From the NCBI GenBank assembly GCA_049521055.1, contig JBEKPE010000001.1, forward strand, positions 44,837 to 108,836: a stretch of 64,000 bases of DNA, given 5' to 3'. The translations under genes were made by a program, and so were the position numbers. The DNA comes from Candidatus Bathyarchaeia archaeon (GTDB taxonomy: Archaea; Thermoproteota; Bathyarchaeia; 40CM-2-53-6). The notes beneath the pieces were generated by a model. It did no database searches and had not been told where the DNA came from. It was given only the letters and a program-made list of their open reading frames with translations. This document shows positions 6,257 through 61,646 of this stretch, piece by piece. Every line of letters begins with the position of its first letter. Positions within the stretch are counted from its first letter, which is position 1.

Positions 6257-8113
6257 TCAGTTTATGATTAGAGGCACGATCCTTTGGCTGTCAACGTCAA
6301 AGAGCCCTTTGTCTGTAATTCTTGCGTGTGATATTACTGGAAGTGCGAGCGTGGAGATTATCAGTATGGTTCCGTAATCGACGAGTCCGAGTTGCTCCTC
6401 CACCTTTCTGAATGCCAACAGTTTACCTGCGACGGTCTCAGCCTTTTCTTCCGACATGAGGCCTGCTACCGGCAGTTCAACTTCAGCCAAAACTTTTCCT
6501 CCGTTCACTGCAACCAGCCCACCTTGGCACTCGATTAGAGTGTTCGCTGCCACCGCCATATCTGACGGGGTATTCCCCACAACAGTAAGGTTGTGTGAAT
6601 CATGTGAAATTGTTGTAGCCAAGGCGCCTTCTTTCAGGCCGAATCTATCCAGGAAGCCAAGCGACTTGTTTCTAGTCTTTCCGTGCCTTTCAAAAACGGC
6701 AACCGTTGCGCCATCGTGCTGCACAATATGGTCCTTGACAGTCACATCTTTTTCTTCAAAGTTGGTTAGGAAGCCCTGCATGGTTATCGTTCGGACTCTG
6801 ATTGATCCACTCTCTTTTTCGACCCGCACCTGGAAATCATCCGGCGTCACTCTCTGAAGTTTCACTGTGCGTGTTGCTTCTTTCGGGAAATGGGTTGTTG
6901 CAAGTTTTGTTACGAGCGTGCCATTCTCCGCTACGATTCTCCCGTTCGCGACAACCAACTTCACCTTGAACTCATTCAAGTCTTTGACTAGTAGAATGTC
7001 AGCGATTTTTCCTGGGCTTATGGCGCCGCGGTCGAATAGGCGAAGGTGTTTGGCTGGGAAGAGGGTTGCTGAGCGAACTGCATCTATTGGATCGAACCCG
7101 TTCTGTATCGCTTTGCGCACAACGTCGTCCAAATGTCCATCTCGCATGAGATCGTCTGGCATTGTGTCGTCGGTAACAAGCAGCAGGCCTTGCTTGCTGG
7201 GAAGATTGGACAGCAACTTGACTAATCCGGGAACGAGGGAGAATTTCCTTAGTTTCGCGAACATTCCTAGGCGGATTTCGCGGAGGATTATATCAAAATC
7301 AGCTTTGTAACCATGGTCTGCATCTACGGGAAAGTATTCGTGGTTTGCTTCAATTCCTGAGGCTGCGTAAGCGTTTGTTCCCTTTTCATCTAGATTCATG
7401 CAGTGACCATCGATAACGACTCCTGCCTCTCTGCCAGCCTTGACTATCTCAGTCATTCGTTTGTCGAGGTTGATCACACCACTGTAATCCATTACTTCAG
7501 CGAGGCCGATAACCCTCTCCCAACCAAGCATCTCTCTAACATCTGACACTTGGATTTCAGCCCCAGCCGTGTCCGCATTCAATACCGCGGGTACGCAGGT
7601 AGGAACGAGAACAAGGACCTTCAAAGGCAGACCTGCGCTGGAATCAAGCATCATCCTTACCCCAGCCTTCCCCAACACGTTCCCAATCTCATGCGGATCA
7701 ATGGCTACAGTAGTTGTCCCATGCGGGAGAACGGCTTCAGCAAATCGCGGTGGGGTAACCATACTGCTCTCAATGTGGAGATGCGAATCGATCAGGCCTT
7801 GAATGGCATACATTCCTTTCGCATCGAAAACATCCTTCGACTTAATTTCCTCTAGCTCCCCAACATAGGAGATTTTGTCACCACAAATCCCTATACTCGT
7901 CTCGTATTGCTCGCGCGTGTAAACGTTCACGAGCCGCACGTTTCTTAACACGAGATCGAACGGGGCGTCTCCGCGTGCAGTCTGAACCAGCCTTTCATAT
8001 GTCATTATTGTAATCATCCCGAATCTGGCGCAACCTAGATTTGGCTTCTGTGGACCGATCCCGGTGATGGCGCAGGTGGGTTCTAGTACCTCTTCGTTGT
8101 GCATTACTTTCAT
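6257..8113 (-). CDS. ade: adenine deaminase
   Basis: Amidohydrolase with the DSHLHIESSMVTP...HGTT...DPHEIGNVLG signature typical of adenine deaminase. Confidence 0.8.
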   Translation of the reverse strand: MKVMHNEEVLEPTCAITGIGPQKPNLGCARFGMITIMTYERLVQTARGDAPFDLVLRNVRLVNVYTREQYETSIGICGDKISYVGELEEIKSKDVFDAKGMYAIQGLIDSHLHIESSMVTPPRFAEAVLPHGTTTVAIDPHEIGNVLGKAGVRMMLDSSAGLPLKVLVLVPTCVPAVLNADTAGAEIQVSDVREMLGWERVIGLAEVMDYSGVINLDKRMTEIVKAGREAGVVIDGHCMNLDEKGTNAYAASGIEANHEYFPVDADHGYKADFDIILREIRLGMFAKLRKFSLVPGLVKLLSNLPSKQGLLLVTDDTMPDDLMRDGHLDDVVRKAIQNGFDPIDAVRSATLFPAKHLRLFDRGAISPGKIADILLVKDLNEFKVKLVVANGRIVAENGTLVTKLATTHFPKEATRTVKLQRVTPDDFQVRVEKESGSIRVRTITMQGFLTNFEEKDVTVKDHIVQHDGATVAVFERHGKTRNKSLGFLDRFGLKEGALATTISHDSHNLTVVGNTPSDMAVAANTLIECQGGLVAVNGGKVLAEVELPVAGLMSEEKAETVAGKLLAFRKVEEQLGLVDYGTILIISTLALPVISHARITDKGLFDVDSQRIVPLIIN

Positions 8114-18218: not shown

Positions 18219-18411
18219 ATTCAGATTTATGAAGCGAAATCATGGATTAAAATTGATGTTCCTGAAGGTAGGAAACAGAGCCGTCCATTCTATTTGCTAA
18301 CCTCAACTACCCGATTGCATGCAGAAATCTGCGGCGTATGGCAAAGCTACGCTAACCTGGTCTAGCTAGCGTTTAATGGTAGTCTAAAAACTGAGTTCAA
18401 ATTCAGTCGCC

Positions 18412-18434
18412 CGCACCATTAGACCCACACACAC
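18412..18434. repeat. palindromic repeat family copy R1 (CGCACCATTAGACCCACACACAC)
   Basis: Matches the GCGyACCAyTAGmCCCACACACAC consensus. Confidence 0.6.
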
Positions 18435-18437
18435 CGT

Positions 18438-18656
18438 TTACTGGTGTGGCAGGTAGACTACCGCTCCGATAGCGAGCGTAACAATTAGAATCACGGCGAA
18501 GGCAGCAGCGAACCTGCCCGGTGTCCATCTGATGCCGTGCGAAACCCATGTGGTGCCGCCATACTTCCAAGACAGAAGCGCGTAACCGATAATTCCAGCA
18601 ACAATCACAGCGGTTCCAAGGAAAACTAAATGCAGAGGATAACTCATCAAATTCAA
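18438..18656 (-). CDS. small membrane protein (hypothetical)
   Basis: Two hydrophobic segments and no homology recognised. Confidence 0.3.
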   Translation of the reverse strand: MNLMSYPLHLVFLGTAVIVAGIIGYALLSWKYGGTTWVSHGIRWTPGRFAAAFAVILIVTLAIGAVVYLPHQ

Positions 18657-18728
18657 AACATTTCACCTACCATTAATATGTTACAACTTGCTCTTACTGG
18701 TTTTCCTAGTTTTCTCAAATCAAAATCA

Positions 18729-18852: not shown

Positions 18853-19764
18853 ATGACCATTCTCCTCAATTTGGTGTGGAGAATGACAAGCAAACGAACT
18901 GCGTATGTAATTGCTGTTCTCCTAATTCTTAGTGCTGCGGTAAACATCATGCAGTTCACCCAGAGCTCAAACCCCCTGTCATTGTCGTTTAATTCTGGCT
19001 CGAATCAGACCGTTTCATATGAGCTTCAAAGTAGCTACAATGAACTATACAACCAATACGGAACACTATATTCTGAATACCAAACGCTTTCTCAGGAATA
19101 CGCACAATTCAAACAGGTGGCGTTAACTCCTCCCTATGTCTCCATATCCAAAGGAACGATCACATGGGTGTTCACCGACGTCAAAGGCGACACGATCACA
19201 TGGCAGCTGCCAATGGACACCTACATACATTACGCCTCAATGCAAAAACCAGTACAAGTCTTGTCGTTACAGACGACCTCGGGTACGGTAACGACTGACG
19301 ATGTACGACCATACATTCAACCTTCATTTTTCGCGAACAGTATTTCAAGTCTCACCGAAGGGAGATCGGACAAGGAATTTGTGAAAGAGGTCGACAACAT
19401 AAAGAATGAACTTGTCATTTATGGAACGAGTCTGGGTGAGGCGCCGTATCAATTTCCCGCCGAGACACTAACTGAAGGGACAGGGAAATGCGCCGATACC
19501 ACGATACTGATGGCCAGTATGCTAATCGCGGGCGATCGCGAAGCAAATTACAATTTCAATGTCTATGTGGAGTACGTCCAATTGAATCCTGACGGCACGC
19601 TCGTTTCAAATAGCAACTTACTCACCGACCCGAACCATGCTATAATCAAAGTGGTATTTGCCGACGGAACAGTTTGGAGCATAGAAACAACGACCAATTA
19701 TTTCTACACTTATTCCCAAGCTTACATAGGATGGCAATTTGACGTCACGTCGGTCAATGCGTGA
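18853..19764 (+). CDS. membrane-anchored transglutaminase-like (Cys-His-Asp) domain protein
   Basis: N-terminal TM. GTGKCADTTILMASML matches the GxCxDxA Cys motif, and NHAIIKVVFADGTVWSIETT supplies His/Asp. Confidence 0.45.
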   Translation: MTILLNLVWRMTSKRTAYVIAVLLILSAAVNIMQFTQSSNPLSLSFNSGSNQTVSYELQSSYNELYNQYGTLYSEYQTLSQEYAQFKQVALTPPYVSISKGTITWVFTDVKGDTITWQLPMDTYIHYASMQKPVQVLSLQTTSGTVTTDDVRPYIQPSFFANSISSLTEGRSDKEFVKEVDNIKNELVIYGTSLGEAPYQFPAETLTEGTGKCADTTILMASMLIAGDREANYNFNVYVEYVQLNPDGTLVSNSNLLTDPNHAIIKVVFADGTVWSIETTTNYFYTYSQAYIGWQFDVTSVNA

Positions 19765-19810: not shown

Positions 19811-20085
19811 TTCACCCGACATCGGACGACGGTTGGAATGGGTTTTTTTACTCTAGAGCTTTTGACGCGTAGCTTCCTTCCTAGAGAAAAGCTACCGGAG
19901 TAGCTTTGTATTCTTTCCAGTTGGAGCTCCCCGTAGCTTTCATGGAGCTACGCGCTCATGAGAATGCAATTGGCCTACTCGCGCGTGACGAGTGACGCCG
20001 TGGATGCCTCATTCTCTATTGATTCTATTTATTCACGAGAAAGAGACATAGGCTAGAATCGCCGCAAGAAGGGAGTAGATGAATA

Positions 20086-43083: not shown

Positions 43084-44109
43084 TTGCAGGAACAGCCGAT
43101 CGGGTGGAGCAATGGGATACTTGTGAATACCGGCTCGTCCCGCCTGCTTTTCGATCCGACCCTGGGTAGGCGTTTAGGTGAGGATTGGAACGTTTTCATC
43201 ACTCACGCTCATTCAGACCATACCTATGGCTTTGGAACTTCCGCGAGAAAACATTCCACTCCAGAGACCCTGCGTATCTACGAATCACTTTCAAAGCGTA
43301 CAGTCAAGAACGATCAGACCATAAGGATCGGGGAGAAAATGCGATTTGATGACACTGAAATCAGGGTCCTCGATGCAGGCCACATGCTTGGTTCCTGCCA
43401 GTTTCAATTGATCACTCCTGAATTTACGGCATTGTATACGGGCGACATCAACTGTGTCGACACACTGACGACTAAGGCAGCCAAAGCTGAGCGCTGCGAT
43501 TTTCTAATTATAGAAGCGACGTATGGGCATCCGTCATACGTATTCCCCCAAAGAGACACCATATACGCCGACATCATACGATGGACAATGACGGAGATTA
43601 ATGATGGCAAGTTACCAACTTTCCAAGTTTACTCATCAGGAAAACCGCAAGACATCGTCCGCCTCTTCAACGTCTACACCAAAATCCCAGTCGTATGCGC
43701 GCCGGGCATAGCCGCGGCAAACCTTGTCCACAATGAAAACGGCGTTCAACTTGACTATCTAGATTCTTCGACCGATGAGGGAAAGCACGTGTTGAAATCG
43801 AGTGGATGCGTCTACGTTACGACCAGTCGTGGAAATCAAGTGCCGCAAAATGCTTCAAGAGCAGTTGCGACTGGTTGGGCTCTTCGAGAGGCTTTTCGCA
43901 GTTTCACTGCATTCCCCTTGAGTAGCCATGCGGACTATAATCAGCTCATGCAATTTATCGCGGCCGTCAACCCGAAAGCAGTATTCATCTTCACAGGATA
44001 CATAGATCTGTTATCGGCTCAGATAGAAAGAAAGCTAGGCATCAAAGCTGGGCCACTGCCTGTACTCGCGCAGACGAATTTAGCTGATTTTACTCGAAAG
44101 GCTACTTGA
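43084..44109 (+). CDS. metallo-beta-lactamase fold / beta-CASP-like nuclease
   Basis: HAHSDH metal motif, DAGHMLGS and IIEATYG. Confidence 0.7.
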   Translation: MQEQPIGWSNGILVNTGSSRLLFDPTLGRRLGEDWNVFITHAHSDHTYGFGTSARKHSTPETLRIYESLSKRTVKNDQTIRIGEKMRFDDTEIRVLDAGHMLGSCQFQLITPEFTALYTGDINCVDTLTTKAAKAERCDFLIIEATYGHPSYVFPQRDTIYADIIRWTMTEINDGKLPTFQVYSSGKPQDIVRLFNVYTKIPVVCAPGIAAANLVHNENGVQLDYLDSSTDEGKHVLKSSGCVYVTTSRGNQVPQNASRAVATGWALREAFRSFTAFPLSSHADYNQLMQFIAAVNPKAVFIFTGYIDLLSAQIERKLGIKAGPLPVLAQTNLADFTRKAT

Positions 44110-44281
44110 AAGTCAGATACATGAAGAGGCTTACGGCGACAAGGCCGATTGCTCCCATGACTACGACCTCGGGCCTTACCTTTACCCCCGGGGTTTCCTC
44201 CTCAAAGAACCGAAGTAAGCCAGCGCTGGCGGCGGGCATTGGTGATTCTCGTTTGCGCCTTTTCTCACGTGCGGTTGACAT
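44102..44281 (-). CDS. preprotein translocase subunit Sec61-beta/SecG (59 aa; below ORF-track cutoff)
   Basis: Hand translation gives MSTAREKRRKRESPMPAASAGLLRFFEEETPGVKVRPEVVVMGAIGLVAVSLFMYLTFK*. AGLLRFFEEE...PGVKV.P plus a single TM is the archaeal Sec61-beta signature. Confidence 0.55.
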   Translation of the reverse strand: MSTAREKRRKRESPMPAASAGLLRFFEEETPGVKVRPEVVVMGAIGLVAVSLFMYLTFK

Positions 44282-44525
44282 TGCTTACTAGATACCTACT
44301 TCCTGGTTTCGGACGGCATCCAATTAAACTTTCATTCTCATTGGGCCATGAAAGGGGGGTTTACCGGATTTCGATGTATTCGTGGGCGCTCTTGACGCTT
44401 TCGAAGCAGTAATGACCCAAGAAAGGCAAATACAAAAAACACCGCTGCGAGCAACCGTTATTCAATTCATCAATAGCGATAAGATTTTCTATCGATAACG
44501 GCAAGTTCGTCTAGAGTGTGATGAA

Positions 44526-45869
44526 ATGAGTTTTTACACTGAATTAAATATTTTGAGTAAGCTGGATCCTGAGCTTGCGGCTATTGTCAAAAAAGAAGTG
44601 GAGAGACAAGAAAACGGACTTGAAATGATCCCTTCAGAAAATTATGTTCATCCCGCACTTTTCGAGGCAATGGGATCAATTTTAACTAACAAATATTCAG
44701 AAGGTTATCCCGGCAAGAGATACTATGGTGGAAATGAGATTGTTGACATTATCGAGAGATTGGCTATAGAGAGAGCAAAGAGAGCTTTTGGTGTTGTCCA
44801 TGTGAATGTTCAACCATATTCAGGAAGCCCAGCCAATTTTGCAGTGTATGTTGCAATTTGCAAGATAGGTGATACTGTTATGGGATTGAATCTTCCAGAT
44901 GGTGGCCATCTAACACATGGATGGAAAGCAAGCGTAACTGGACAATTCTTTAACAGCATTCCTTATCATGTCAAACCAGACGGCTACATAGATTTAGATG
45001 AGGTGAGAAGACTAGCCAAAGAAAATAATCCAAAAATCATCTGGGTTGGGGCAACTGCTTACGTTCGAGAATTTCCATTCCAAGAACTTGGAGAAATTGC
45101 AGACGACGTTGGAAGTTATTTAGTTGCTGACATAGCACACATAGCAGGTTTGATTGTAGCAGGCGCTCACAAATCCCCCGTGCCATATGCGCACATCATA
45201 ACAACAACCACCCACAAAACTCTGAGAGGCCCCAGAGGAGCAATGATAATGGTTACAGAAAAAGGATTAAAAAAAGATCCTGAGCTCCCTGCTAAAATTG
45301 ACCGAGCCATTTTCCCAGGTCTTCAAGGTGGCCCTCATGATCATACAACAGCCGCAATAGCTGCTGCTTTAGGATTTGCCTTGAGACCAGAATTCAAAGA
45401 ATATGGGAAACAAATCGTGAAGAATGCAAAAGCATTAGCTCAATCTTTGATGGATAATAAAATAAAATTAGTTACCAATGGAACTGATAACCACATGGTT
45501 CTCATAGATTTAACCGCGTTTGGAAAAGGAAAAGGAATTTTTGTGCAAGAGGCGCTTGATGCTGCAGGTATAACTGTAAACAAAAACACAATACCAGGTG
45601 AACCATCTTCTCCGTTCTATCCGAGTGGAATAAGACTAGGAACTCCCGCACTAACATCAAGAGGGATGAAGGAAAATGAGATGGCGTTGATTGGCAGCTG
45701 GATGGCTAAAATAATTTTTGCAGTCAAAAATTACGAACTGCCTGAAGATAAAAACCAGAGAAATGCAGTATTGAAACAATTCAGAGAGGATACAAAACAG
45801 AATGATACAATCAAGAAGACGAGACAGAGTGTTATAGATCTCTGCAAAGAGTTTCCACTCTACAGATAA
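44526..45869 (+). CDS. glyA: serine hydroxymethyltransferase
   Basis: Full-length SHMT with PLP-lysine region TTTTHKTLRGPRG. The gene is markedly AT-rich relative to its neighbours. Confidence 0.9.
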   Translation: MSFYTELNILSKLDPELAAIVKKEVERQENGLEMIPSENYVHPALFEAMGSILTNKYSEGYPGKRYYGGNEIVDIIERLAIERAKRAFGVVHVNVQPYSGSPANFAVYVAICKIGDTVMGLNLPDGGHLTHGWKASVTGQFFNSIPYHVKPDGYIDLDEVRRLAKENNPKIIWVGATAYVREFPFQELGEIADDVGSYLVADIAHIAGLIVAGAHKSPVPYAHIITTTTHKTLRGPRGAMIMVTEKGLKKDPELPAKIDRAIFPGLQGGPHDHTTAAIAAALGFALRPEFKEYGKQIVKNAKALAQSLMDNKIKLVTNGTDNHMVLIDLTAFGKGKGIFVQEALDAAGITVNKNTIPGEPSSPFYPSGIRLGTPALTSRGMKENEMALIGSWMAKIIFAVKNYELPEDKNQRNAVLKQFREDTKQNDTIKKTRQSVIDLCKEFPLYR

Positions 45870-46155
45870 GATTTTGTAGTTGTCATGTTAGTTTCAGAGG
45901 TTATTCTTGATTTAATCAAAATAGATTTATTCGCATACCAGAATTGGGCTTTCTTTTTTTGGTCCATGGTTTGCTGGTGTGGTGGTGTCATCACTGGTGT
46001 GACCGTCGTAATCCGGACCGTAACAACCTTTCCAAGGTGGCAACTTTGAATGTGACAGGGCTTTCTTCAGTGACGTGACGCGCTTACCTTCAACAAAGGT
46101 CAACTCGCCGCCTGGCTTGCGGGGTCATGAAGTAGCATAGGTCTTGTACTGGGCG

Positions 46156-49888: not shown

Positions 49889-49990
49889 TCAAACCATCAA
49901 CGCTGCGCACAGAAAGTCACAACTACTTAACTGTTATTTTATGACAATCTCACTAAAAGAACATATTATTATGATGAATTAGTCCAATTA

Positions 49991-50296
49991 TTATCTTCGT
50001 TTGCTGAACTCTTTAGCTTTTGTTATGAAATCGCGTATTTGCTCAATGTTTAGCGGCGAGAGAACTCTGGATCTGCCGACCTCGTAAACTTGAAGGAGGC
50101 CTGCCCTTCTGAGTATTTCGACGTGCCTATACACTCCTCCGTAATCCATTTTCAAGTTACTAGCTACGGCAGTAATGTGTAGAGGTTTCTTGCTGTCCAT
50201 GAGCATTAGCAGAATGCGGAGCCGGACGCTATTTCCTAATGCCGAGAACGTTGCGGAGGCTGATCGAAGTTCTTCGGCAGCAGACATTGAGATCAA
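49991..50296 (-). CDS. ArsR/SmtB family HTH regulator
   Basis: LGNSVRLRILLML...YRHVEILRRAGLL wHTH. Confidence 0.7.
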   Translation of the reverse strand: MISMSAAEELRSASATFSALGNSVRLRILLMLMDSKKPLHITAVASNLKMDYGGVYRHVEILRRAGLLQVYEVGRSRVLSPLNIEQIRDFITKAKEFSKRR

Positions 50297-50515: not shown

Positions 50516-51343
50516 CTAGCTAACATAGGGTAACTCCCTTTCGCCGCCCTTACGGCCTTCGCGGGGAAAGGAATGCGAGAGATCCTTCGCCTTTTGCACA
50601 ACCTCCGCGTTCTCTTTGGCCTGTTTCTCAAGCGCTGTCAGATCTATCGAAACGTTCAACATTCTTGACGCAAGCTGCAAAGCTGCTTTCGCTGCGTTAG
50701 CATCTAATGATAAGTAACCTGGGGTTTCGGCTAGGAGGCAGATGGCTGGAATGTTCTTTGGTTTGGCAAGCCCGAATATGAGACCGTTAGTTCCCGTTAT
50801 TGCACCTCCGGCTAGTTTCACTGCGCCCAAGGATTCCAGTTCCTTCACCAATTCGACATCTGTTGCACCAGCATATACCCTCGGCTCCTCTGCAAACCTG
50901 TCAGTAGCCATTCCACCCATCGTGATCACTTTTTTCGTACCGAACTTCGCTGCCAAGTCTAAGACCACCTCCGCGAGCTCGTATTGCCCTTCTGGTGAAT
51001 AGGGCTGCTCGTTAGCCGTGAAGAGAAGTAGATCGGATCCTCCGTCCTTGTTCTTCCAGTAGTGAAATTCGCCCTTCATCATGCCAACCACTCCATCCTC
51101 ACTTAACCAAACTTTTGGGGAGAACATCGGAGAGAAGACCTCCGCGAACAGTTGAGCTTTCAGCTCTTTCTGGAGATGGTTAACCGCTAACCATGCGACT
51201 GAACCGATGCCTGGAAGGCCGCACACCATTACGGCGTCTCGGAGTTCGGGTTGTTGCGAGTAACGCACTTCTGTTTGCATCGAGATTCCCGAGGGATCGT
51301 GAGTATTGGTATGGAATCTATGTGAATAGCCGGTAATTAGCAT
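50516..51343 (-). CDS. PAC2 (proteasome assembly chaperone)-family protein
   Basis: VMVCGLPGIGSVAWLAVNHL glycine-rich N-terminal motif and about 250 aa length. Confidence 0.55.
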   Translation of the reverse strand: MLITGYSHRFHTNTHDPSGISMQTEVRYSQQPELRDAVMVCGLPGIGSVAWLAVNHLQKELKAQLFAEVFSPMFSPKVWLSEDGVVGMMKGEFHYWKNKDGGSDLLLFTANEQPYSPEGQYELAEVVLDLAAKFGTKKVITMGGMATDRFAEEPRVYAGATDVELVKELESLGAVKLAGGAITGTNGLIFGLAKPKNIPAICLLAETPGYLSLDANAAKAALQLASRMLNVSIDLTALEKQAKENAEVVQKAKDLSHSFPREGRKGGERELPYVS

Positions 51344-51379: not shown

Positions 51380-51655
51380 CTATTGAGAGGGCAGTTTCTG
51401 TTGGCCAAATGGGGTTAGCCCCCATGCGAACGGTTTCGTATTGCTCAGTCGGTCCACCAAACGGTCCTTTCTGAGTGCCTTGAGGTGATAAGTGACGCAT
51501 GCATAAGACAGTCCGGCCTCTTTCACTATCTGTGGTGCACTCCTTCGGTCTCTCTCAAGAACTATGAGGATCCTAGTTCGCGCGACTAATCCTGCCTTGA
51601 CATTACGTTTTGAGGTAAGGTAGGCTTTGGGATGAAGCGCTCCGCGCTTTGCCAT
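51380..51655 (-). CDS. winged-helix (ArsR-like) transcriptional regulator
   Basis: RTRILIVLE...VTYHLKALRKDRLV. Confidence 0.55.
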   Translation of the reverse strand: MAKRGALHPKAYLTSKRNVKAGLVARTRILIVLERDRRSAPQIVKEAGLSYACVTYHLKALRKDRLVDRLSNTKPFAWGLTPFGQQKLPSQ

Positions 51656-54600: not shown

Positions 54601-55078
54601 CGATGACAAGAATCAATGCCATATCGGTGCCCCCAGCGGACCTAATGGGGCCTGCAAAGTAGACAGCCAGATACTTCGATCCATCTTGATTTGATCTTAT
54701 CCTGACGCTTGAGATTCCCTCAATCGGCGCGGCAGTAACGCCTTCATCTAGAATGGCCGATGCAGTTCGGACCGCCTGTTCTGCTGCACGCTCACCGTCC
54801 ACTCCATACTTTGAAAGCGAGATCTCTTCAGCTATCTTGAGCGCTACAAGCTCGCGTGGCATCAGAAGCGAAAGTTCGCGGATTCTTGAAGCCACCGCAG
54901 GAGGGCCGACAGCTTTCTCGACTCGTTCCGCAACATCCTGGGTGACAACAGACTCTGGATCCCGTGATGGATCCAACCCTTTTGCTCGTGCCTGTCTAGC
55001 TAGATCATAGATCTTGTCGACCTGATCCTTTAGGCCCTGAAAATACAGGTCGTGTCGGCTTAGAGCTGTTGCATCCAA
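51665..55078 (-). CDS. DNA polymerase II (PolD) large subunit DP2
   Basis: 1137 aa. Has DP2 N-terminal region, cysteine clusters CGNCGN...CEKCG and CPRCGGK, and a conserved catalytic core. Confidence 0.9.
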   Translation of the reverse strand: MDATALSRHDLYFQGLKDQVDKIYDLARQARAKGLDPSRDPESVVTQDVAERVEKAVGPPAVASRIRELSLLMPRELVALKIAEEISLSKYGVDGERAAEQAVRTASAILDEGVTAAPIEGISSVRIRSNQDGSKYLAVYFAGPIRSAGGTDMALILVIADYVRHQVGLGRYKATELEAKRFVEELRLYEREVARFQFKVSDEELFNAVMRLPVEVNGVETDPVEVSAYRNVPRVDTNRVRGGALRVVHDGLIGRSHKVLKIIDSLGIEGWSWLKEIKPPVAEAEEAREFMFMEDVLAGRPIFAFPQFTGGFRLRYGRARNTGLAAIGLHPSTMIALGKFIAVGTQLRLEKPGKAGIAATVDSIEPPIVRLKDGSVVRLSDPKRTETLLDSVDEILFLGDILIGFGEFLENNRPLLPSGFVEEWWRQLMELEATKHSGIHGFADHIGIDEPRLVAYLNDSSGECPTAEEAIRIAKRSNVPLHPKYTWFWENIAPQDFDYLRSKLLDSNQTTSSPNRISTKNDPMTKTILENLCALHRVDQDSLIVDEDATILYECLGLASQGSAVEGKDVFEKLFHASGMRLMKKAPVYVGARMGRPEKAARREMRPLVHCLFPIGLAGGSRRNIVETMAEHTIISVELAYRKCGNCGNTTHFGKCEKCGADTVAAFTCQRCGIDTPGKICPSCKGDAQAFTRRNVPIRDLFNSAQRRLSLTVTPESVKGVRGLTNQTKTPEPLEKGLLRAKYDVSVFKDGTVRFDATNAPLTHFKPAEIGVGVDKLIELGYDVDVAGNPLTSNQCCSLRVHDIIVPEACGDYFVRVAKFIDDLLQRLYGLPPFYNAKNKQDLVGQLVIGLSPHTSVGVIGRIIGFTKASVTLAHPFWHAAKRRDCDGDEDSVSLALDILLNFSKQFLPSRIGGIMDAPILLTIGIKPREVARQAFNIESVNRLPLQFYDATQKHSDPKSQANIIETVQDRLGSQAVLESLGFTQSTDDVDAGNLESVYKKLGSMVEKVTLQLKLAESIKAVEAGEVAKRVLSTHFMRDLTGNLKAFAGQRFRCTKCNSKFRRLPLKGACPRCGGKLSLTVYKGGVEKYLTVAQDLVKRYDLGQYHEQRLLLLREEINSLFNEHEEKKKQPTLAQFV

Positions 55079-55132
55079 CGTTGCAGGCCTAGATTACAGA
55101 CTGGCCTGCCTCTTCTTTAAGACTAGGAAAGC

Positions 55133-55432
55133 TTACTGCCCACTTGGAGTTGAAACCGAGGCAGATTCAGCAGATTGCTGAGGCTGCTGAGTTTGGGCCT
55201 TGTCTTTCACGTAGAAGCTGTCCATGAACATGCAGTATATGTCGACGATTTGACTTGACGGAGTCGCCTCGAATTCGCGTTTGAGTCCGCACGAACCGCA
55301 TTGGACACTCGCGGGACCAGCCCCTTGTGGAAGTTTTACGCGTATTGCCTCCTCGCCACAGACAGGGCAGGTGAAGACTGAGGGTAGTTTTTTCTTTACA
55401 ACTTTGATTACTCGTCTTCTACGTCTACCCAA
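55133..55432 (-). CDS. transcription elongation factor Elf1-like zinc-ribbon protein
   Basis: MGRRRRRVIKVVKKKLPSVFTCPVCG...CGSCG. Confidence 0.55.
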   Translation of the reverse strand: MGRRRRRVIKVVKKKLPSVFTCPVCGEEAIRVKLPQGAGPASVQCGSCGLKREFEATPSSQIVDIYCMFMDSFYVKDKAQTQQPQQSAESASVSTPSGQ

Positions 55433-55649
55433 CCTGACTCCCCTCTAATTCAGATGCAGAGATCAGCCCCGAGTTATTTCAACGTTCCATCAAGTCTAAC
55501 ATCACATTCAAACCGGGAAATTCAAGCTCGAATTTGACCAATTACTTCCGAACGACATTGATGGAGTGCGAATTACGCTCCTTCGCTTGAGGGCTTGATG
55601 GGGTATGGATCGAATGGCGAATTATGGTTCGTAACCCGATCCTAGGAAA

Positions 55650-55735
55650 CATGTGCGGGGGTGTCGAACACCCCCGTTGACTGTCTTACAACCGTACAAT
55701 GGGACCGAGCACTCTCGAGATCCTCGAACTCAATT
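55650..55735. repeat. conserved hairpin element copy B (GGGGGTGT-cga-ACACCCCC followed by CTGTCTTACAACCGTAC...GGGACC)
   Basis: Aligns with 8212-8320, including a compensatory extra G:C pair in the stem. Confidence 0.6.
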
Positions 55736-55800
55736 TGGCGCAAGCCCGGATTTGTCACCACTGCAAGCTCGTTCTGCAAGAATATTCTCAAAGAGTTTAA

Positions 55801-56301
55801 GTGAATACGAAAGCGTATCCACACGGGTGTCCCTTGGCAGAACAACCCGACACGTCAGATGCGCGTCACTCAATCCATGGCACCGTAAGCGATCCAGTCA
55901 CAAAGCTTCTCCTGGATAGCAGTCACCTAACCTTGCCACAACTGGAAACGCTACTCGCTGATTCCGTTTCACAAGAGAAAACCATGAAAAAAGGTTACAG
56001 GCGCCTTTTCAGGCCCTCAACGAAGAGGATTAGCCGCGGATCATATAATCGAAGCCTAATCCAAGCCCAAAATAACATTATTCGATCAATTTACACGATC
56101 TTGCTGTTAGGATATGTGGGGTTGTTCGATACTTCAGCGTTGCAACCCTTCATTGAACTCTCGGACACACTTCAGGGCTACATCCAAGAAAACCAGTCCT
56201 CCTCACCCGGCGACTTGGAAGCGATTCGAGACTTGAAGCGAAGACTCTCGGAGGCTATCTCCGCATTGGCCTACCGTCAAAGCTTCAAAGATACTCTATG
56301 A
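55801..56301 (+). CDS. hypothetical protein
   Basis: ORF only. The start is uncertain (an internal Met near 55984 is possible). Confidence 0.3.
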   Translation: MNTKAYPHGCPLAEQPDTSDARHSIHGTVSDPVTKLLLDSSHLTLPQLETLLADSVSQEKTMKKGYRRLFRPSTKRISRGSYNRSLIQAQNNIIRSIYTILLLGYVGLFDTSALQPFIELSDTLQGYIQENQSSSPGDLEAIRDLKRRLSEAISALAYRQSFKDTL

Positions 56302-56307
56302 CCGATC

Positions 56308-56516
56308 ATGTGATGTCACGTGACATGGCAAGAATACGCTGTGCGTTATTCAAACAGAGTGCGTATTTGACGAAATGAAAAGGGGAACAAATTAAGCGAA
56401 TTACCCCAGACGGCCAGAATATAGGCCGATTGTGTGATGTCACCGTGAGCTAGGTGGATGTCACGTCAGCGTCACGTTCAAATCATCGTGACATCATAAG
56501 GCGACTGTGACATCAC
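56308..56516. promoter_or_regulatory. array of five GTGATGTCAC/GTGACATCAC sites including perfect 14-bp palindrome ATGTCACGTGACAT
   Basis: Sites at 56313-56326, 56434-56443, 56455-56464, 56488-56497 and 56507-56516, immediately upstream of a wHTH gene. Confidence 0.55.
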
Positions 56517-56539
56517 AGGGTAGAAGAGGTTAAAGCACC

Positions 56540-57262
56540 TTGAATCTCCCCTTTCCCATGACCATGGACGCCTTTGCGTTAGCAGTCGATTTGGTTTCCC
56601 TGCTCTGCTTGGTATTGGTGGGCATCGTAGGGAGCAAGACGATCCACGCTTTTCAGCAAAGCAAACAAGCGGTAGTCGAATCCTCGTCGCTGATCAGCGT
56701 CATCGTGGACGCTCTTTCATCACGCATTCAACGCTCTGAATCGGTAATGATTCAGCTACGCTCAAGCATGGAGGCAACGACACAACGCAGCGACGCTCTA
56801 GCAGGAGAACAGGTGAACTTACGCACATCCCATCAGGAGACGTTGCGTCACCTGCAAGAGATCTTAGCTAACGACAAGAAGCTCGTCCTGGAATTCGAGC
56901 AATTAAAGTCAAAACTCAACACCATTCAACAAAGGAATCCAAGTATCGATGCCCTACCGAAACGTGAGAATTTGGCTGCCCTAGTCTCTGATGGAGACTT
57001 CTTAGCATCCCTCACGCCGACTGAACGTCTGACGCTGGAAATTTTAAGGGATGAAGGTGCGAAAGCGGCTCCAGAAATTGGAAAACGCCTGAACAAATCT
57101 AGAGAACACACGTCGCGATTGATGAAAAAGTTGTATATGGAAGGGTATGTCGACCGTGAATCGAACCATGCTCCGTTCAGATACAAATTGAACGAGGCGT
57201 TGCGTGCAACATTCGAAAGTCCCAATGACCAGGTCAGGGCGAAACCGTCGGAGACGTTTTGA
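56540..57262 (+). CDS. membrane-anchored coiled-coil protein with C-terminal winged-helix DNA-binding domain
   Basis: N-terminal TM (AFALAVDLVSLLCLVLVGIVG), a heptad-rich middle region, and a C-terminal LTPTERLTLEILRDEGAKAAPEIGKRLNKSREHTSRLMKKLYMEGYV wHTH. Confidence 0.55.
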   Translation: MNLPFPMTMDAFALAVDLVSLLCLVLVGIVGSKTIHAFQQSKQAVVESSSLISVIVDALSSRIQRSESVMIQLRSSMEATTQRSDALAGEQVNLRTSHQETLRHLQEILANDKKLVLEFEQLKSKLNTIQQRNPSIDALPKRENLAALVSDGDFLASLTPTERLTLEILRDEGAKAAPEIGKRLNKSREHTSRLMKKLYMEGYVDRESNHAPFRYKLNEALRATFESPNDQVRAKPSETF

Positions 57263-57632
57263 GTCGATAAAACCAGTGAGCAGCCGACCCTGTTCTCTCC
57301 AACATACCGCGGTCCGCAAGTCGCGATAAATACGTCGAAACGGCACCAAGGGTGAAGCCCTCCCCCCAGATTTCGCGGTAAGATTGGTAGATCTCGCGAG
57401 AATCGAAACTACGATCAGCTAACTGCGTGTTGATTACATCCGTCAACCGACTCATTTTGCTCTCCCCACCCTCAAGAGAAGAGACATGCTGATTGGGGCC
57501 GGCCACGATTTCCGCGTATTCTAACAATCGATTAACTTTCTCGACCGTAAAGTCCCCCTCAATGGCTAGGCTATGTTTTGCACCAGATCGATCGAAGAAC
57601 TCGAGCTTGATGCGTCTTTTCATGAGGAGCAC
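57234..57632 (-). CDS. hypothetical protein (possible wHTH), adjacent to oriC
   Basis: ORF only. Contains VSTYLSRLADRGMLER. Confidence 0.35.
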   Translation of the reverse strand: MLLMKRRIKLEFFDRSGAKHSLAIEGDFTVEKVNRLLEYAEIVAGPNQHVSSLEGGESKMSRLTDVINTQLADRSFDSREIYQSYREIWGEGFTLGAVSTYLSRLADRGMLERTGSAAHWFYRLKTSPTVSP

Positions 57633-58194
57633 GTTCCACTGGTCAACAAATTATAAGTTGATTGGCATTGTTGAGCACGCTGCTGATATAGTTTCACCGG
57701 AAAAATTAGGCGTGCAGTGGAAACAGAGGGGTTATTGGAACAGTCCACAGACGACAACACGTGAACTGCAACGAACCTATTCTGCCTAAGCGCCCCTAAC
57801 CCCTTGATTTCGACTGGACAAATACATTTGACCAAACACTGAATAGAACAAATTCAAGTTTTGCTGACTGATGAAAATTAGAGGCGTAGGTACAATCTCG
57901 TAAATGCTATCTCATTTATTGTCAAAAAGTAATAGTACAATGACTTCTTCTTAACAGCAGAAGAAAACACGAACCGACTTCACCATACTTGGAGTGGAAT
58001 CGAAGGGGTGAGGGGGTCCACAACGCATTTTCCAACATGGTTTACAACATTTTTCCAGAGTCTTATGTGATAACTGTGCATACCGGTTCCAGTGGCGATA
58101 GTTGATTTTCTTGTACAACAACCATTAGCTACTTTTCAAGATGTAAGACCGGTGTGACCAGTGGAGGTATGTTCCCTTACCAGCCGTAGACGTT
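57630..58194. other. replication origin oriC with ORB/mini-ORB elements and AT-rich unwinding region
   Basis: Plus-orientation CAGTGGAAACAGAGGGG at 57715-57731, GAGTGGAATCGAAGGGGTGAGGGGG at 57993-58017, TTCCAGTGGCGA at 58087-58098 and ACCAGTGGAGG at 58157-58167. Inverted GTTCCACTGGTC at 57632-57643. AT-rich stretch at 57840-57960. Lies directly upstream of cdc6. Confidence 0.7.
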
Positions 58195-59424
58195 ATGGAA
58201 ACCTTATTCGACAAATATTTGTCCACCGCCAAAATATTCGCAGAGCGTGACGTTTTACGGCACGACTACATGCCAACTCACTTACCGCACCGAGATGAGC
58301 ATATTCAGCGTTTGGCAGGGATTCTTGCTCCCGCGCTTCATCAATCGAAGATATCAAATGTATTCGTTTACGGGAAAACAGGTACAGGCAAGACCATAGT
58401 AACGAAATTTGTGCTCGACAAACTGCAGAAGAAGGCCACCGAGATCGGGGCCCCAGTAAAGATGGCTTACATCAATTGCCGTCTCGCGGGAACTAACTAC
58501 CGGGTGCTGGCGGAGATATGTAGAGCCGTCGGAGTGGAGGTACCTTTCACGGGAATTGCCGTCGGAGAGCTTTTGGATCGATTTTCAAATGGGATAAGTG
58601 CCGACAGGACTGCCCTACTTGTCACTCTGGACGAGATTGATGCTCTGATAAAGCATAACGCGGATGATTCCCTGCTGTATGAGCTCACGAGAATCAATGA
58701 AACGCTCAACTCTTCTTGGATTAGCCTCGTAGGGATCTCAAACGATCTTCATTTCAAGGAGTTCCTGGATCCACGCGTCCTAAGTTCGCTTAGCGAAGAG
58801 GAGGTTGTTTTTCGGCCCTATCTCGCAGATGAGCTCTTTGACATTCTATTCGACAGGACACGATTGGCTTTCCTCAAAGGGGCGCTCGACGAAAATGCTC
58901 TGAGACTGTGCGCTGCCTTGGCCGCCGGCGAGCATGGTGATGCAAGACGGGCACTCGATCTGCTTCGCGTCGCAGGGGAACTGGCGGAGCGCGAAGACTC
59001 GGGACGAGTGATCGAACAGCACGTGCGCCAAGCGCAGCAGAAGATCGAACACGATCGCGTGTCTGAGGTGTTGAAGTCGCTTCCTGCTCACTCCAAAATC
59101 CTGCTTGTCGGAGCGTACTTGTTGAGCAATCATCTCTCTAGCGGAGCCATAACTGGCGATGTGTACGAGGTGTACCACGAGCTATGCGGAGCCAGCGATT
59201 TGGAACCATTGACACAGCGTAGAGTTAGCGGCCTCATCAACGAGCTGGACGTCATGGGAATATTGAACGCCAGAGTCGTGAGTTTCGGAAGGTACGGGAG
59301 AACCAAGAAAATAAGACTCGGAGTATCTCCTCGAGTTATCGCAGATACCTACTTTGAGGACAATATTGCGGGCAGGCTCTTCGGATACGTCCCGAAATCT
59401 CTCCAGAAGCATCAGGCAGCCTAG
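58195..59424 (+). CDS. cdc6: Orc1/Cdc6 replication initiator
   Basis: AAA+ Walker A GKTGTGKT, Walker B LVTLDEID and C-terminal winged helix. Confidence 0.95.
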   Translation: METLFDKYLSTAKIFAERDVLRHDYMPTHLPHRDEHIQRLAGILAPALHQSKISNVFVYGKTGTGKTIVTKFVLDKLQKKATEIGAPVKMAYINCRLAGTNYRVLAEICRAVGVEVPFTGIAVGELLDRFSNGISADRTALLVTLDEIDALIKHNADDSLLYELTRINETLNSSWISLVGISNDLHFKEFLDPRVLSSLSEEEVVFRPYLADELFDILFDRTRLAFLKGALDENALRLCAALAAGEHGDARRALDLLRVAGELAEREDSGRVIEQHVRQAQQKIEHDRVSEVLKSLPAHSKILLVGAYLLSNHLSSGAITGDVYEVYHELCGASDLEPLTQRRVSGLINELDVMGILNARVVSFGRYGRTKKIRLGVSPRVIADTYFEDNIAGRLFGYVPKSLQKHQAA

Positions 59425-59980
59425 CTTTAGAATCGTAGGAGTAGATGACGGGCCTCTTCCGACCAGGAGAGAGACTGGCGGATACGCGGTCATAGTGACG
59501 GTTCTACTTCAGGGCTTCTTGATTTCCAAAGTCAGACTTGGAAGAATAGAGGTTGATGGAACTGGCGCTAATTCCATACTCAGAGACTTACTCAGGAATA
59601 TGGCATACGATGTCGCAATGCTTAGCGGGATTTCCTTCGGTGGCTTCAATCTCATCGACATCGATCAACTTTCCCGTGGGACAGGTAAACCGGTAATCGC
59701 AGTCATTGGTGAAAGGCCGGACAACGTATCCGTGCGGAAAGCGTTGCGGAGGCATTTCGATGATTGGGAGCGTCGGTGGCGAATCGTGAAGAATGCTGGC
59801 CCCTTGTATTCATTCAAACCACTTCCGAATGAACCCAAGTTATACTACGAAGTAAAGGGAGGTTCGCCAGCTTACGCTAGGAGAGTTATTGCCTCATCGG
59901 CCATCATCTCGCGTCTACCAGAACCCGTTCGCGTGGCTGGCCTCGTGGCCAAGAACCTAGGATCATTCCTGGCTATGTGA
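59354..59980 (+). CDS. DUF99/UPF0215-like protein (endonuclease V-like fold)
   Basis: FRIVGVDDGPL N-terminal motif. The ORF overlaps the cdc6 3' end in another frame. The true start is probably nearer 59420 with a non-canonical or unrecognised start codon. Confidence 0.5.
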   Translation: MRTILRAGSSDTSRNLSRSIRQPSFRIVGVDDGPLPTRRETGGYAVIVTVLLQGFLISKVRLGRIEVDGTGANSILRDLLRNMAYDVAMLSGISFGGFNLIDIDQLSRGTGKPVIAVIGERPDNVSVRKALRRHFDDWERRWRIVKNAGPLYSFKPLPNEPKLYYEVKGGSPAYARRVIASSAIISRLPEPVRVAGLVAKNLGSFLAM

Positions 59981-60101
59981 CCAGTTCATGAGATGTGGTT
60001 GTTTCAAGAAACGGCAAAGAGTTTCGCGTAGAGAAATGGTAACTGCCTCGCGATCATACAGAGTTCGGCGACAAGCTGGAGTTGGCAAAATTAGCGGATC
60101 C

Positions 60102-61646
60102 CTAAGCTGGGATCTGTTGGCCTAATTCTTGCGGCTTGCCAGAGTCGGGTTCGATGAAATTGATCAAGCGAACCTGCAATGTGCGCAGGTTTAAGGCGGT
60201 CAATATTCCTGGTGTTGGAACCAAGCCGACCCTTCGTTGGTAGTCAGTCTGTGCTTGCCAAGCTCCAGAGTTGATTATCTGAGTGCCGCGATAGTTCTCG
60301 TACTTCACTACGTGTATGTGGCCGGATTGGAAAACGTCGGGAACTCTCTCAATCACTAAATGATCAACTTTCTCAGGAGAAATGGAGCTCCTGTTCCCGT
60401 ACTCTGACGCTAAGTGCCTACACTGGAGTTGAAGCCTCATCGCCTTTTCTGGTTGGGTGAAGTCTACGTTTGGAGCGCTTGAGATCACGTCATCTAGGCT
60501 TCTGCCGTGGTGCAGAAGGAACCTAACGCCGTGAAAGGAAACCTCGGCTGGGTTTCCGAGAGAGACTAGTTCACGTGACTCATACAGGGGTTCCCCAAAA
60601 CTCTTTGGTATCGGCGGTTGAGGAAGAGCCTGCCTGACGGGGTCGTGGTTCCCAGGTATCACGACGGTTTCAATATAGTCAGGTATCCTGCCAACATATT
60701 TGGCCGCCTCCTGGTACTGCTGATACAGGTCAACGATCGCTAATTCATGTTCCTGCCGCGGATAAATTCCGATGCCATCGACAATGTCGCCGCAGATTAC
60801 CAAATACTTCGTCCGTTCGGCGATAGCCCGTTGGTTCGGGTCTCCGATTTTCAGGTTTAACCAGTCGAAAACTCTGCTTAACTCTCGACTCAAGAATTTC
60901 TTGCTTCCCACATGAAGGTCCGAGAGCAGGATTGCCCACACGTCTTCCTCAGCTAAGTGTGGTTTGTGATCTGGAATGTCAGGGAGTAGAACTTCCTTCG
61001 CTACGAACAAATCTCCCTTCGCCCGGACTCCGCCTACGCATATTACCTGATCTAGAGGAATTTTTTGGGCTGTTTCATATGCCGCCCTTTCCTCCGGCGA
61101 AACCAATACAGTCGCCGTATCTTCCAAATCGTCAAGCTGCACAAACAGTTTTCGCTGCCTTTCTCGCTTCTCCATAACCATTGCGATGAACTTCACCTTC
61201 TTGTTCTGCTCTTGGGCGAGAGCAACTGCTAAGCTGGTGGCATCTCTTGAATCTGGTCGCTCGCGGAAAGCCCGGCTGAGTTTCTGAAATCTATCTCTGA
61301 AATAATGAGAAAAGTCATCTATGGTGCCCCCCGTCCCGATTTCCTTGGACGGATCTCTGAGAACTTCTAGTCGCGCTGAGATTTGCTTCGCGGGGATCGT
61401 ACGCGCCACCGAGGCTTGAACCTGCGGGGGCTCCAAGAGGGGATGTGTGGAGATCTCGAGCAGTTCTTGTCGAGATAGTATATGAGATGTGCTGGCTTTG
61501 TCGCCAATTGAAAGGAGGACGTTTTTTGCGAATGTTGATGCCTCGGGTTCATCCATGGTCTTGAGGTAATCGTATGCCGATCGGTCGATTTGGTACCCTG
61601 CCAGTGCGAGTTCCTGAACCAGTCGTCGGAGTTGCTCCATGGGCAA
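60102..61646 (-). CDS. DNA polymerase II (PolD) small subunit DP1
   Basis: Calcineurin-like phosphoesterase motifs (GDIVD, GNHD) and an OB-fold region. Confidence 0.9.
   Translation of the reverse strand: MPMEQLRRLVQELALAGYQIDRSAYDYLKTMDEPEASTFAKNVLLSIGDKASTSHILSRQELLEISTHPLLEPPQVQASVARTIPAKQISARLEVLRDPSKEIGTGGTIDDFSHYFRDRFQKLSRAFRERPDSRDATSLAVALAQEQNKKVKFIAMVMEKRERQRKLFVQLDDLEDTATVLVSPEERAAYETAQKIPLDQVICVGGVRAKGDLFVAKEVLLPDIPDHKPHLAEEDVWAILLSDLHVGSKKFLSRELSRVFDWLNLKIGDPNQRAIAERTKYLVICGDIVDGIGIYPRQEHELAIVDLYQQYQEAAKYVGRIPDYIETVVIPGNHDPVRQALPQPPIPKSFGEPLYESRELVSLGNPAEVSFHGVRFLLHHGRSLDDVISSAPNVDFTQPEKAMRLQLQCRHLASEYGNRSSISPEKVDHLVIERVPDVFQSGHIHVVKYENYRGTQIINSGAWQAQTDYQRRVGLVPTPGILTALNLRTLQVRLINFIEPDSGKPQELGQQIPA

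Follow-up and report, generated by a model that had tools for sequence, protein, structure and literature searches.

A candidate Orc1-1-dependent replication origin upstream of orc1/cdc6 in a Bathyarchaeon

Does the gap upstream of the orc1/cdc6 initiator gene of a Bathyarchaeon hold the start site of chromosomal replication? We have addressed this question in a 64,000-nucleotide stretch of a Candidatus Bathyarchaeia archaeon (assembly GCA_049521055.1, contig JBEKPE010000001.1), hereafter called the window. The gap extends over 571 bp (57624..58194; 57.3% AT), as delimited with the open reading frame (ORF) map and alignment, and is bordered by orc1/cdc6 on one side and by a divergent gene for a 129-aa winged helix-turn-helix (wHTH) protein on the other. 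A sequence-only reading had proposed an origin made of five origin recognition box (ORB) or mini-ORB motifs directly 5' of orc1/cdc6, and all five were found there. Based on the results presented below, the gap is very probably a chromosomal replication origin of the Orc1-1-dependent (oriC1-like) type.

Origin recognition boxes, AT-rich spacer and initiator

The gap contained three full ORBs. ORB1 (57712..57735, plus strand, GTGCAGTGGAAACAGAGGGGTTAT) scored 31.6 bits with a weight matrix and has one G-string. ORB2 (57793..57819, minus strand, reverse complement GTCCAGTCGAAATCAAGGGGTTAGGGG; 32.6 bits) and ORB3 (57990..58017, plus strand, TGGAGTGGAATCGAAGGGGTGAGGGGGT; 26.1 bits) have a double G-string each and form the left and right arms of an inverted pair, with ORB1 lying outside this pair. 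The sequence-only reading had seen two of these boxes, ORB1 at 57715-57731 (CAGTGGAAACAGAGGGG) and ORB3 at 57993-58017 (AGTGGAATCGAAGGGGTGAGGGGGT), but had overlooked the minus-strand box at 57793-57819. The latter was retrieved by a repeat search (inverted repeats I2 and I3), being the inverted partner of ORB3 across an AT-rich stretch. The element at 58087-58098, previously listed as a further full ORB, has no G-string and was reassigned as a mini-ORB. Direct reading of the sequence revealed that ORB2 and ORB3 both turn their dyad halves towards the spacer and their G-strings away from it. The second G-string was found on both ORBs beside the AT-rich element (GGGGTTAGGGG and GGGGTGAGGGGG), and the outer ORB1 has none.

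The boxes were highly specific to this gap. Searching the 64 kb with the full-ORB pattern AGTSGAANNNNNGGGGT and allowing up to one mismatch gave four matches, against 0.50 expected, a count reached in none of 100 shuffles. Exact matches to this pattern numbered three and corresponded to ORB1, ORB2 and ORB3, all within 57716-58009. With a 22-nt weight matrix and a threshold of at least 15 bits, only three matches were obtained in the 64 kb, with scores of 26-33 bits and all in the gap, the runner-up reaching 14.1 bits.

The close alignment comprised 17 upstream regions, those of the window and of 16 close relatives. Together with loci that had not been used to train the matrix (see below), it revealed that the position, order and orientation of the boxes are conserved in related genomes. 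ORB cores and G-strings were 98-99% conserved and the 5-nt ORB spacers were variable, with CCCTAACCCC of ORB2 unchanged in 17 of the 17 aligned sequences. ORB3 occupied a fixed position in the relatives, its spacer being variable.

The 170 bp between ORB2 and ORB3 (57820..57989) constitute an AT-rich spacer, a candidate duplex unwinding element (DUE), with 66.5% AT compared to 50.3% for the window. The stretch from 57840 to 57960, which had been described as AT-rich, indeed contained 67.8% AT (vs. the same 50.3%). The spacer ranked in the top 0.1-0.2% of window positions regarding AT content and nearest-neighbour duplex stability. Its least stable 100-bp block began at 57841, with -119.4 kcal/mol against a mean of -140.9 (standard deviation 6.1), and was among the five least stable of the window. 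In the 17-sequence alignment the spacer sequence was at background conservation (majority fraction of 0.53) and carried indels, with only patches being conserved, such as the GAG at 57881-57883. Composition was kept in related loci (see below) and sequence was not, as expected of an unwinding element.

The gene that follows the gap (58195..59424, plus strand) encodes an Orc1/Cdc6 initiator that is an Orc1-1 orthologue. The product matched TIGR02928 with 412.6 bits (cut-off 181.3), contained the Cdc6_C and Cdc6_lid domains and presented intact Walker A (GKTGTGKT) and Walker B (DEID) motifs. The best solved structures were those of Sulfolobus solfataricus Orc1-1 (2qby_A, 2.9e-113) and Aeropyrum pernix ORC1 (2v1u_A, 1.5e-110). 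Hence, the match to the established architecture of archaeal origins, which had been claimed from the initial inspection, held in all its components, namely consensus ORBs, an inverted pair around an AT-rich element, an adjacent Orc1-1 orthologue and a conserved layout. The data analysed here show how the cis elements are arranged, that this arrangement is statistically specific and conserved, and that the initiator is an orthologue of Orc1-1.

From the experimentally studied systems of Sulfolobus, Aeropyrum and Pyrococcus, on which our mechanistic model is based, we infer the protein binding, unwinding and firing steps. Orc1/Cdc6 monomers would bind the three full ORBs, with the winged helix at the CAGTGGAA dyad half and the AAA+ initiator-specific motif at the G-string. 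ATP-bound Orc1 on the inverted ORB2 (minus strand) and ORB3 (plus strand) would recruit MCM to the 170-bp spacer. The duplex would then open in the spacer and forks would depart both ways, with ORB1 and a degenerate mini-ORB being positioned outside the inverted pair.

Conservation across Bathyarchaeia and alternative explanations

The Cdc6 protein had no exact entry in the assembly index. It was used to retrieve 44 loci for comparison (45 counting the window), all from metagenome-assembled genomes of Bathyarchaeia and with Cdc6 identities ranging from 56% to 98%. A unit consisting of a minus-strand ORB, an AT-rich spacer and a plus-strand ORB was present in 27 of the 45 loci, the window included, with spacers of 131-194 bp. 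The mean AT content of these spacers was 64.3%, against 50.8% for the loci, and it was the higher of the two in 27 of 27 cases. We have also scanned 25 loci that were not part of the matrix training. The region of up to 700 bp upstream of cdc6 (15.9 kb in total) gave 31 matches of at least 15 bits, in comparison with five in the remaining 327 kb.

All five outside matches belonged to displaced origin clusters, located about 3 kb upstream of cdc6 in three loci (L031, L033 and L040). Direct examination of L033 and L040 showed that their ORB3 and cdc6 are separated by a pyruvate phosphate dikinase (PPDK) gene; the ORBs of L031 are displaced to the same position. The displaced module of ORB1, ORB2, spacer and ORB3 was intact beside the 129-aa gene (L033 6790-7112). 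In L033 (9890-9985), cdc6 has kept a CTGGAGG element, an element resembling a mini-ORB and a TATA-like box enclosed in a palindrome. The gap of the window can therefore be divided into two parts, the origin core at about 57690-58017 and, at 58018-58194, the cdc6 promoter-proximal segment.

These loci bear on a different explanation, according to which the ORB/mini-ORB cluster is a transcriptional operator array only, through which Orc1/Cdc6 would repress cdc6 as well as the divergent wHTH gene, with replication beginning elsewhere. Such a role would be compatible with the conserved mini-ORB at 58157-58167, about 30 nt before the cdc6 ATG, with the location of ORB1, which precedes the divergent gene by about 90 nt, and with the conserved palindromes around TATA-like boxes, which indicate that promoters are also in the region. 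However, since the PPDK insertion separates the module from cdc6, the ORB module is not just a cdc6 operator: in L031, L033 and L040 the full module stands 2.9 kb from cdc6 with its architecture intact, with the unrelated PPDK gene in between in L033 and L040. An operator array also fails to explain why inverted boxes enclose, in all 27 loci, an AT-rich stretch of 131-194 bp in which composition alone is kept, and we consider it very unlikely. Even less can be said for a chance cluster of motifs in an ordinary promoter region. Single mini-ORB cores (CCANTGGA) did occur at the chance rate over the window (7 vs. 8.7 expected), and the element at 57632-57643 was not conserved, yet three of the seven fell in the 571-bp gap, which is 0.9% of the window. 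Chance does not account for a full-ORB count that no shuffle reached, for strong matrix matches confined to one gap, or for a position, order and orientation kept in dozens of genomes. This explanation has next to no probability, and we deem it refuted.

The architecture could also be that of a true origin that is dormant, dispensable or secondary, with the main initiation taking place at another origin or being recombination-dependent. According to extracts of the published accounts, cdc6-adjacent origins are intact yet dispensable in Thermococcus kodakarensis (PMC5663688) and T. barophilus (PMC11005403), and this precedent counts against an active origin in the gap. So do several other points. 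The deepest cumulative GC-skew minimum of the window was at 19823, not at 58 kb, and the skew at third codon positions (GC3) had no sign switch at 58 kb. The case covers 64 kb of the genome and is built on sequence and comparative evidence. Lastly, the training of the weight matrix included some of the window's own boxes; this is offset because the untrained loci and the independent pattern search also support the boxes. A dormant origin would agree with the weak skew of the window and its several sign changes. It is less compatible with the strong purifying selection that preserves the three ORBs and the composition of the spacer in relatives whose Cdc6 identities range from 98% to about 56%, and with the gene co-orientation left of the site, which fits forks departing from here. 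We regard a dormant or secondary role as unlikely, and an Orc1-1-dependent chromosomal origin remains the explanation that we favour.

Regarding the GC skew, an inflection at about 58 kb had been suggested as a check of the origin. A local cumulative minimum was indeed found at 58291, but the deepest one was elsewhere, as mentioned above. The skew was -0.046 in the 10 kb to the left and +0.071 in the 6 kb to the right, with the right flank exceeding the left one in 18 of 19 related loci, and its sign changed three times in the window. The minimum at 19823 coincided with a divergent gene pair (18403-18666, minus strand; 18853-19764, plus strand) that has neither an ORB match nor a cdc6 gene, and for this reason the skew is seen to follow the direction of transcription. 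Skew over 64 kb was thus uninformative, neither confirming nor refuting an origin, and tracked gene orientation. Archaeal skew can be weak or inverted (PMC1868953). To the left of the site, 70% of the coding bases are on the minus strand and co-directional with a leftward fork. Together, gene orientation and skew direction provided weak support for the origin.

Probable promoter segments, second repeat and neighbouring genes

From left to right, the gap presents a TATA-like box in a palindrome (57640-57677), a degenerate mini-ORB (57689-57702), ORB1, a conserved block (57745-57762) and ORB2, followed by the AT-rich spacer, ORB3, a conserved block (58041-58058), a mini-ORB (58087-58098), a near-palindromic block (58105-58135), a mini-ORB (58157-58167) and the cdc6 start codon, an ATG at 58195. 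For the 129-aa gene, the GTG at 57632 given as start in the ORF list was rejected in favour of the ATG at 57623, which is conserved in the alignment. Two small ORFs that reach into the gap were treated as spurious owing to frame-breaking indels in the alignment, one at 57620-57835 (minus strand, 71 aa; no Pfam match either) and the other at 57493-57789 (plus strand, 98 aa). The gap is not an RNA gene, because no Rfam family was detected in 55000-60000 (E up to 1) and no tRNA was found within the window.

The mini-ORBs differed in their conservation. The cdc6-proximal element at 58087..58098 (plus strand, TTCCAGTGGCGA), which has no G-string and matches the CCANTGGA core, was seen in about 10 of the 17 close sequences (majority fraction of 0.71). 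The mini-ORB at 58157..58167 (plus strand, ACCAGTGGAGG), reported before and present as such, read CCANTGGAG(G/A) in all 17 sequences, its central base being free, as expected since the element is a TCCA-N-TGGA dyad. It is nearly identical to a Pyrococcus furiosus mini-ORB oligonucleotide, TTTCCACTGGAGGTAA (PMC1904270), and a related mini-ORB-like element, GCTGCTGGAGGA, remains with cdc6 in L033. Just upstream of ORB1, the putative degenerate mini-ORB-like element at 57689..57702 (plus strand, TTTCACCGGAAAAA; majority fraction of 0.68) has clear mini-ORB counterparts at the same alignment position in some relatives, for example TACAGTGGAAAA. The inverted mini-ORB described earlier at 57632..57643 (minus strand, reverse complement ACCAGTGGAACG) does exist in the sequence, forming an 11-bp exact inverted repeat (I7) with 58155-58165, but it was conserved in 0 of 16 close relatives (majority fraction of 0.59). 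Its function is doubtful because it is present in this genome only, and either the match arose by chance or the element is perhaps peculiar to the strain. In Pyrococcus, single mini-ORBs are scattered and Cdc6 is bound only at clusters (PMC1904270). The mini-ORB at 58157-58167 may be an autoregulatory site, and the mini-ORBs at 58087 and 58157 most likely allow Orc1 to regulate its own gene.

Two conserved segments of the gap resemble promoters. On the side of the 129-aa gene, a TATA-like TTATAAG (57652-57658) lies within a TCAACA/TGTTGA inverted repeat (I11) in a conserved block (57640..57677, minus strand), which probably corresponds to the promoter and operator of this divergent gene. L033 has a like layout around the TATA-like box of its 129-aa gene, with another half-site (TTCACAG...CTGTGAA). 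On the cdc6 side, the conserved block at 58105..58135 (plus strand, GATTTTCTTGTACAA(G/C)AA..TTAGCTA; majority fraction of 0.87) is a probable cdc6 promoter and operator. It includes the near-perfect palindrome TTCTTGTACAAGAA, which looks like an operator for a dimeric regulator placed over the cdc6 promoter. At the corresponding place in L033 (9920-9960) a different palindrome, TACAGAAAT...ATTTCTGTA, surrounds a TTAATA box and stays with cdc6 after the PPDK insertion. Between ORB1 and ORB2 there is a further conserved non-ORB block (57745..57762, TCCACAGACGACAACACGT; CAACAYGT in relatives; majority fraction of 0.84), with one [AT]CAACA copy.

This last motif is part of a second repeat, [AT]CAACA or GT(C/G)AACA, found in the conserved blocks at 57641, 57666 (reverse complement), 57752, 58042 and 58113, and in L033 at 6687-6910. 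The gap of the window held five copies against 0.64 expected. They form the palindrome at the TATA-like box of the 129-aa gene, with further copies between ORB1 and ORB2 and near ORB3. Across the loci, the density of GT[CG]AACA was 1.61/kb in origin regions vs. 0.28/kb elsewhere (5.8-fold), with the strict pattern being absent in many loci. The half-site depended on the clade, being GTCAACA in that of the window and GTGAACA in that of L033.

The 129-aa gene itself (57234..57623, minus strand) is divergent and lineage-specific, and its product combines a small domain at the N-terminus with a winged helix (AlphaFold2 mean confidence score, pLDDT, of 74.5). It adjoins the ORB module in about 38 Bathyarchaeia loci by synteny, including the three in which cdc6 is split off (L033 6227-7116; L040 3896-4765). 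The protein had no Pfam or NCBIfam family and no solved-structure profile match below E = 0.2, and a fold search with its model gave generic winged-helix matches only. A tentative and rather improbable proposal would be that this wHTH protein binds the second-repeat sites as a lineage-specific origin accessory factor, besides Orc1 and the ORBs, and is not a plain autoregulator. Such an accessory role would have a loose counterpart in that of WhiP or UBP in Sulfolobus.

The replication gene neighbourhood outlined in the sequence-only reading was largely borne out, with PolD DP2, Elf1, Cdc6, Endo_dU (DUF99) overlapping the cdc6 3' end, a convergent PolD DP1 and a KaiC-like ATPase gene all being identified. 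All in-frame starts of the Endo_dU ORF that precede its Pfam domain overlap with the 3' end of cdc6. The "wHTH array" proposed in the same reading stood in part: a 240-aa gene has a significant MarR-type wHTH and the 129-aa protein has a winged helix by structure model only, but the 166-aa gene had no significant Pfam or NCBIfam match and no relative of known fold (none below E = 0.2 in a profile search against solved structures). The order DP2, Elf1, 166-aa gene, MarR gene, 129-aa gene, origin, cdc6, Endo_dU and DP1 was conserved across the clade, in chromosomal contigs of up to 2.4 Mb. Long contigs of relatives with this locus are CAVTBR010000001.1 (1.57 Mb, locus at 769-790 kb), CAVSBL010000002.1 (2.36 Mb, locus at 1.785-1.806 Mb) and JBEKFP010000001.1 (1.41 Mb, locus at 684-705 kb).

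Some observations concern the surroundings and the public records. Directly downstream of PolD DP2 there are an ArsR-type helix-turn-helix gene (51380-51655, minus strand, 91 aa) and a gene for a PAC2 proteasome assembly chaperone (50516-51343, minus strand), both syntenic with PolD DP2 in most related loci. The GC content is low at 44000-46000 (0.42-0.45 vs. about 0.50), where a serine hydroxymethyltransferase gene is located (44526-45869). Several of the 120-bp blocks with the highest AT content in the window belong to this stretch, which may have been acquired recently. The 120-bp block that is richest in AT (73%, starting at 49921) has no ORB and lies in a gap (49889-49990) flanked by a 229-aa gene without a Pfam family and by an ArsR/HTH_20-type regulator gene (49991-50296). 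In the comparison set, three loci (L006, L013 and L014) with an archaeal cdc6/PolD locus are filed under bacterial bin names (Acidiferrales, Acidoferrum and Methylomirabilota), which is probably due to mis-binning in public records.

Comparison with known archaeal origins

We have found no paper describing a Bathyarchaeia replication origin in the literature searched. The element analysed here is an ordinary, textbook-type origin in its architecture, which would not surprise a specialist, in a lineage where none was found described. Its least ordinary aspects are the linkage of a wHTH gene to the ORB module and the second repeated element. Bathyarchaeia are abundant and largely uncultured archaea of sediments and soils. 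A defined ORB consensus and layout would offer an anchor to orient and circularise their metagenome-assembled genomes, would allow growth rates to be estimated from the peak-to-trough ratio of read coverage, and would supply a specific DNA for biochemical work with recombinant Orc1.

In oriC1 of Sulfolobus, firing depends on ORB2 as well as on ORB3, which are placed in inverted orientation on either side of an AT-rich element (PMC12141716); Orc1 monomers bind the ORBs with defined polarity and the inverted pair directs MCM to AT-rich DNA (PMC12141716, PMC3607249). The Bathyarchaeia locus resembles Sulfolobus (Saccharolobus) oriC1 in having three ORBs upstream of orc1-1, with ORB2 and ORB3 inverted around the AT-rich element and ORB1 outside, and its initiator is most similar to S. 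solfataricus Orc1-1 (2qby_A, 2.9e-113). The two differ in dimensions, the spacer alone having 170 bp here (131-194 bp in relatives), whereas the whole ORB3-DUE-ORB2 unit of Sulfolobus islandicus has 130 bp. They differ also in the second G-string on the DUE-flanking boxes and in the extra mini-ORBs of the cdc6 promoter segment of our predicted origin. Origins of Sulfolobales and Desulfurococcales carry, at the centre of the DUE, an 11-bp ucm motif to which UBP binds.

The closest box match was with the predicted origins of Methanomassiliicoccales (Borrel et al. 2014, PMC4153887). The archaeal ORB consensus is CTTCCAGTGGAAACGAAAGGGGT, and in Methanomassiliicoccales the ORB reads GTTCCAGTGGAAATGG-AGGGGTA, to which a GGGGGT extension may be added (PMC4153887). 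The ORBs of both lineages share the same 22-nt length and spacing, one base below the general archaeal consensus, as well as the optional GGGGGT extension and inverted box pairs beside orc1/cdc6.1. In Methanomassiliicoccales, a different lineage in which the origins are likewise only predicted, the pair spacing varies from 39 to 256 bp and boxes are found both up- and downstream of cdc6.

Two inverted ORBs, mini-ORBs, AT-rich regions and nearby PolD genes are also found at the oriC of Pyrococcus and other Thermococcales (Matsunaga et al. 2007, PMC1904270), and the Pyrococcus mini-ORB, TTCCACTGGAGGT, is nearly identical to 58157-58169 of the window. In contrast, the Pyrococcus ORBs are 34 bp long, with a gap of 9 nt from GTGGAAA to the G-string (5 nt here), and a second ORB cluster lies inside dp1. 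The dp1 gene of the window (60102-61646) had no matrix match of at least 10 bits and no CCANTGGA, and hence no second ORB cluster of the Thermococcales type. The gene arrangement is also distinct, with DP1 being convergent with cdc6 and DP2 lying on the other side of the origin in our locus.

With oriC1 of Haloferax volcanii (Norais et al. 2007, PMC1868953) the Bathyarchaeia locus shares an extended second G-string that is restricted to the two ORBs around the primary DUE. Haloarchaea differ in having many cdc6 genes and origins and an inverted skew polarity. The G-string extension was held to be halophile-specific in PMC1868953; its presence on the DUE-flanking ORBs of a non-halophilic soil lineage extends the double G-string beyond halophiles.

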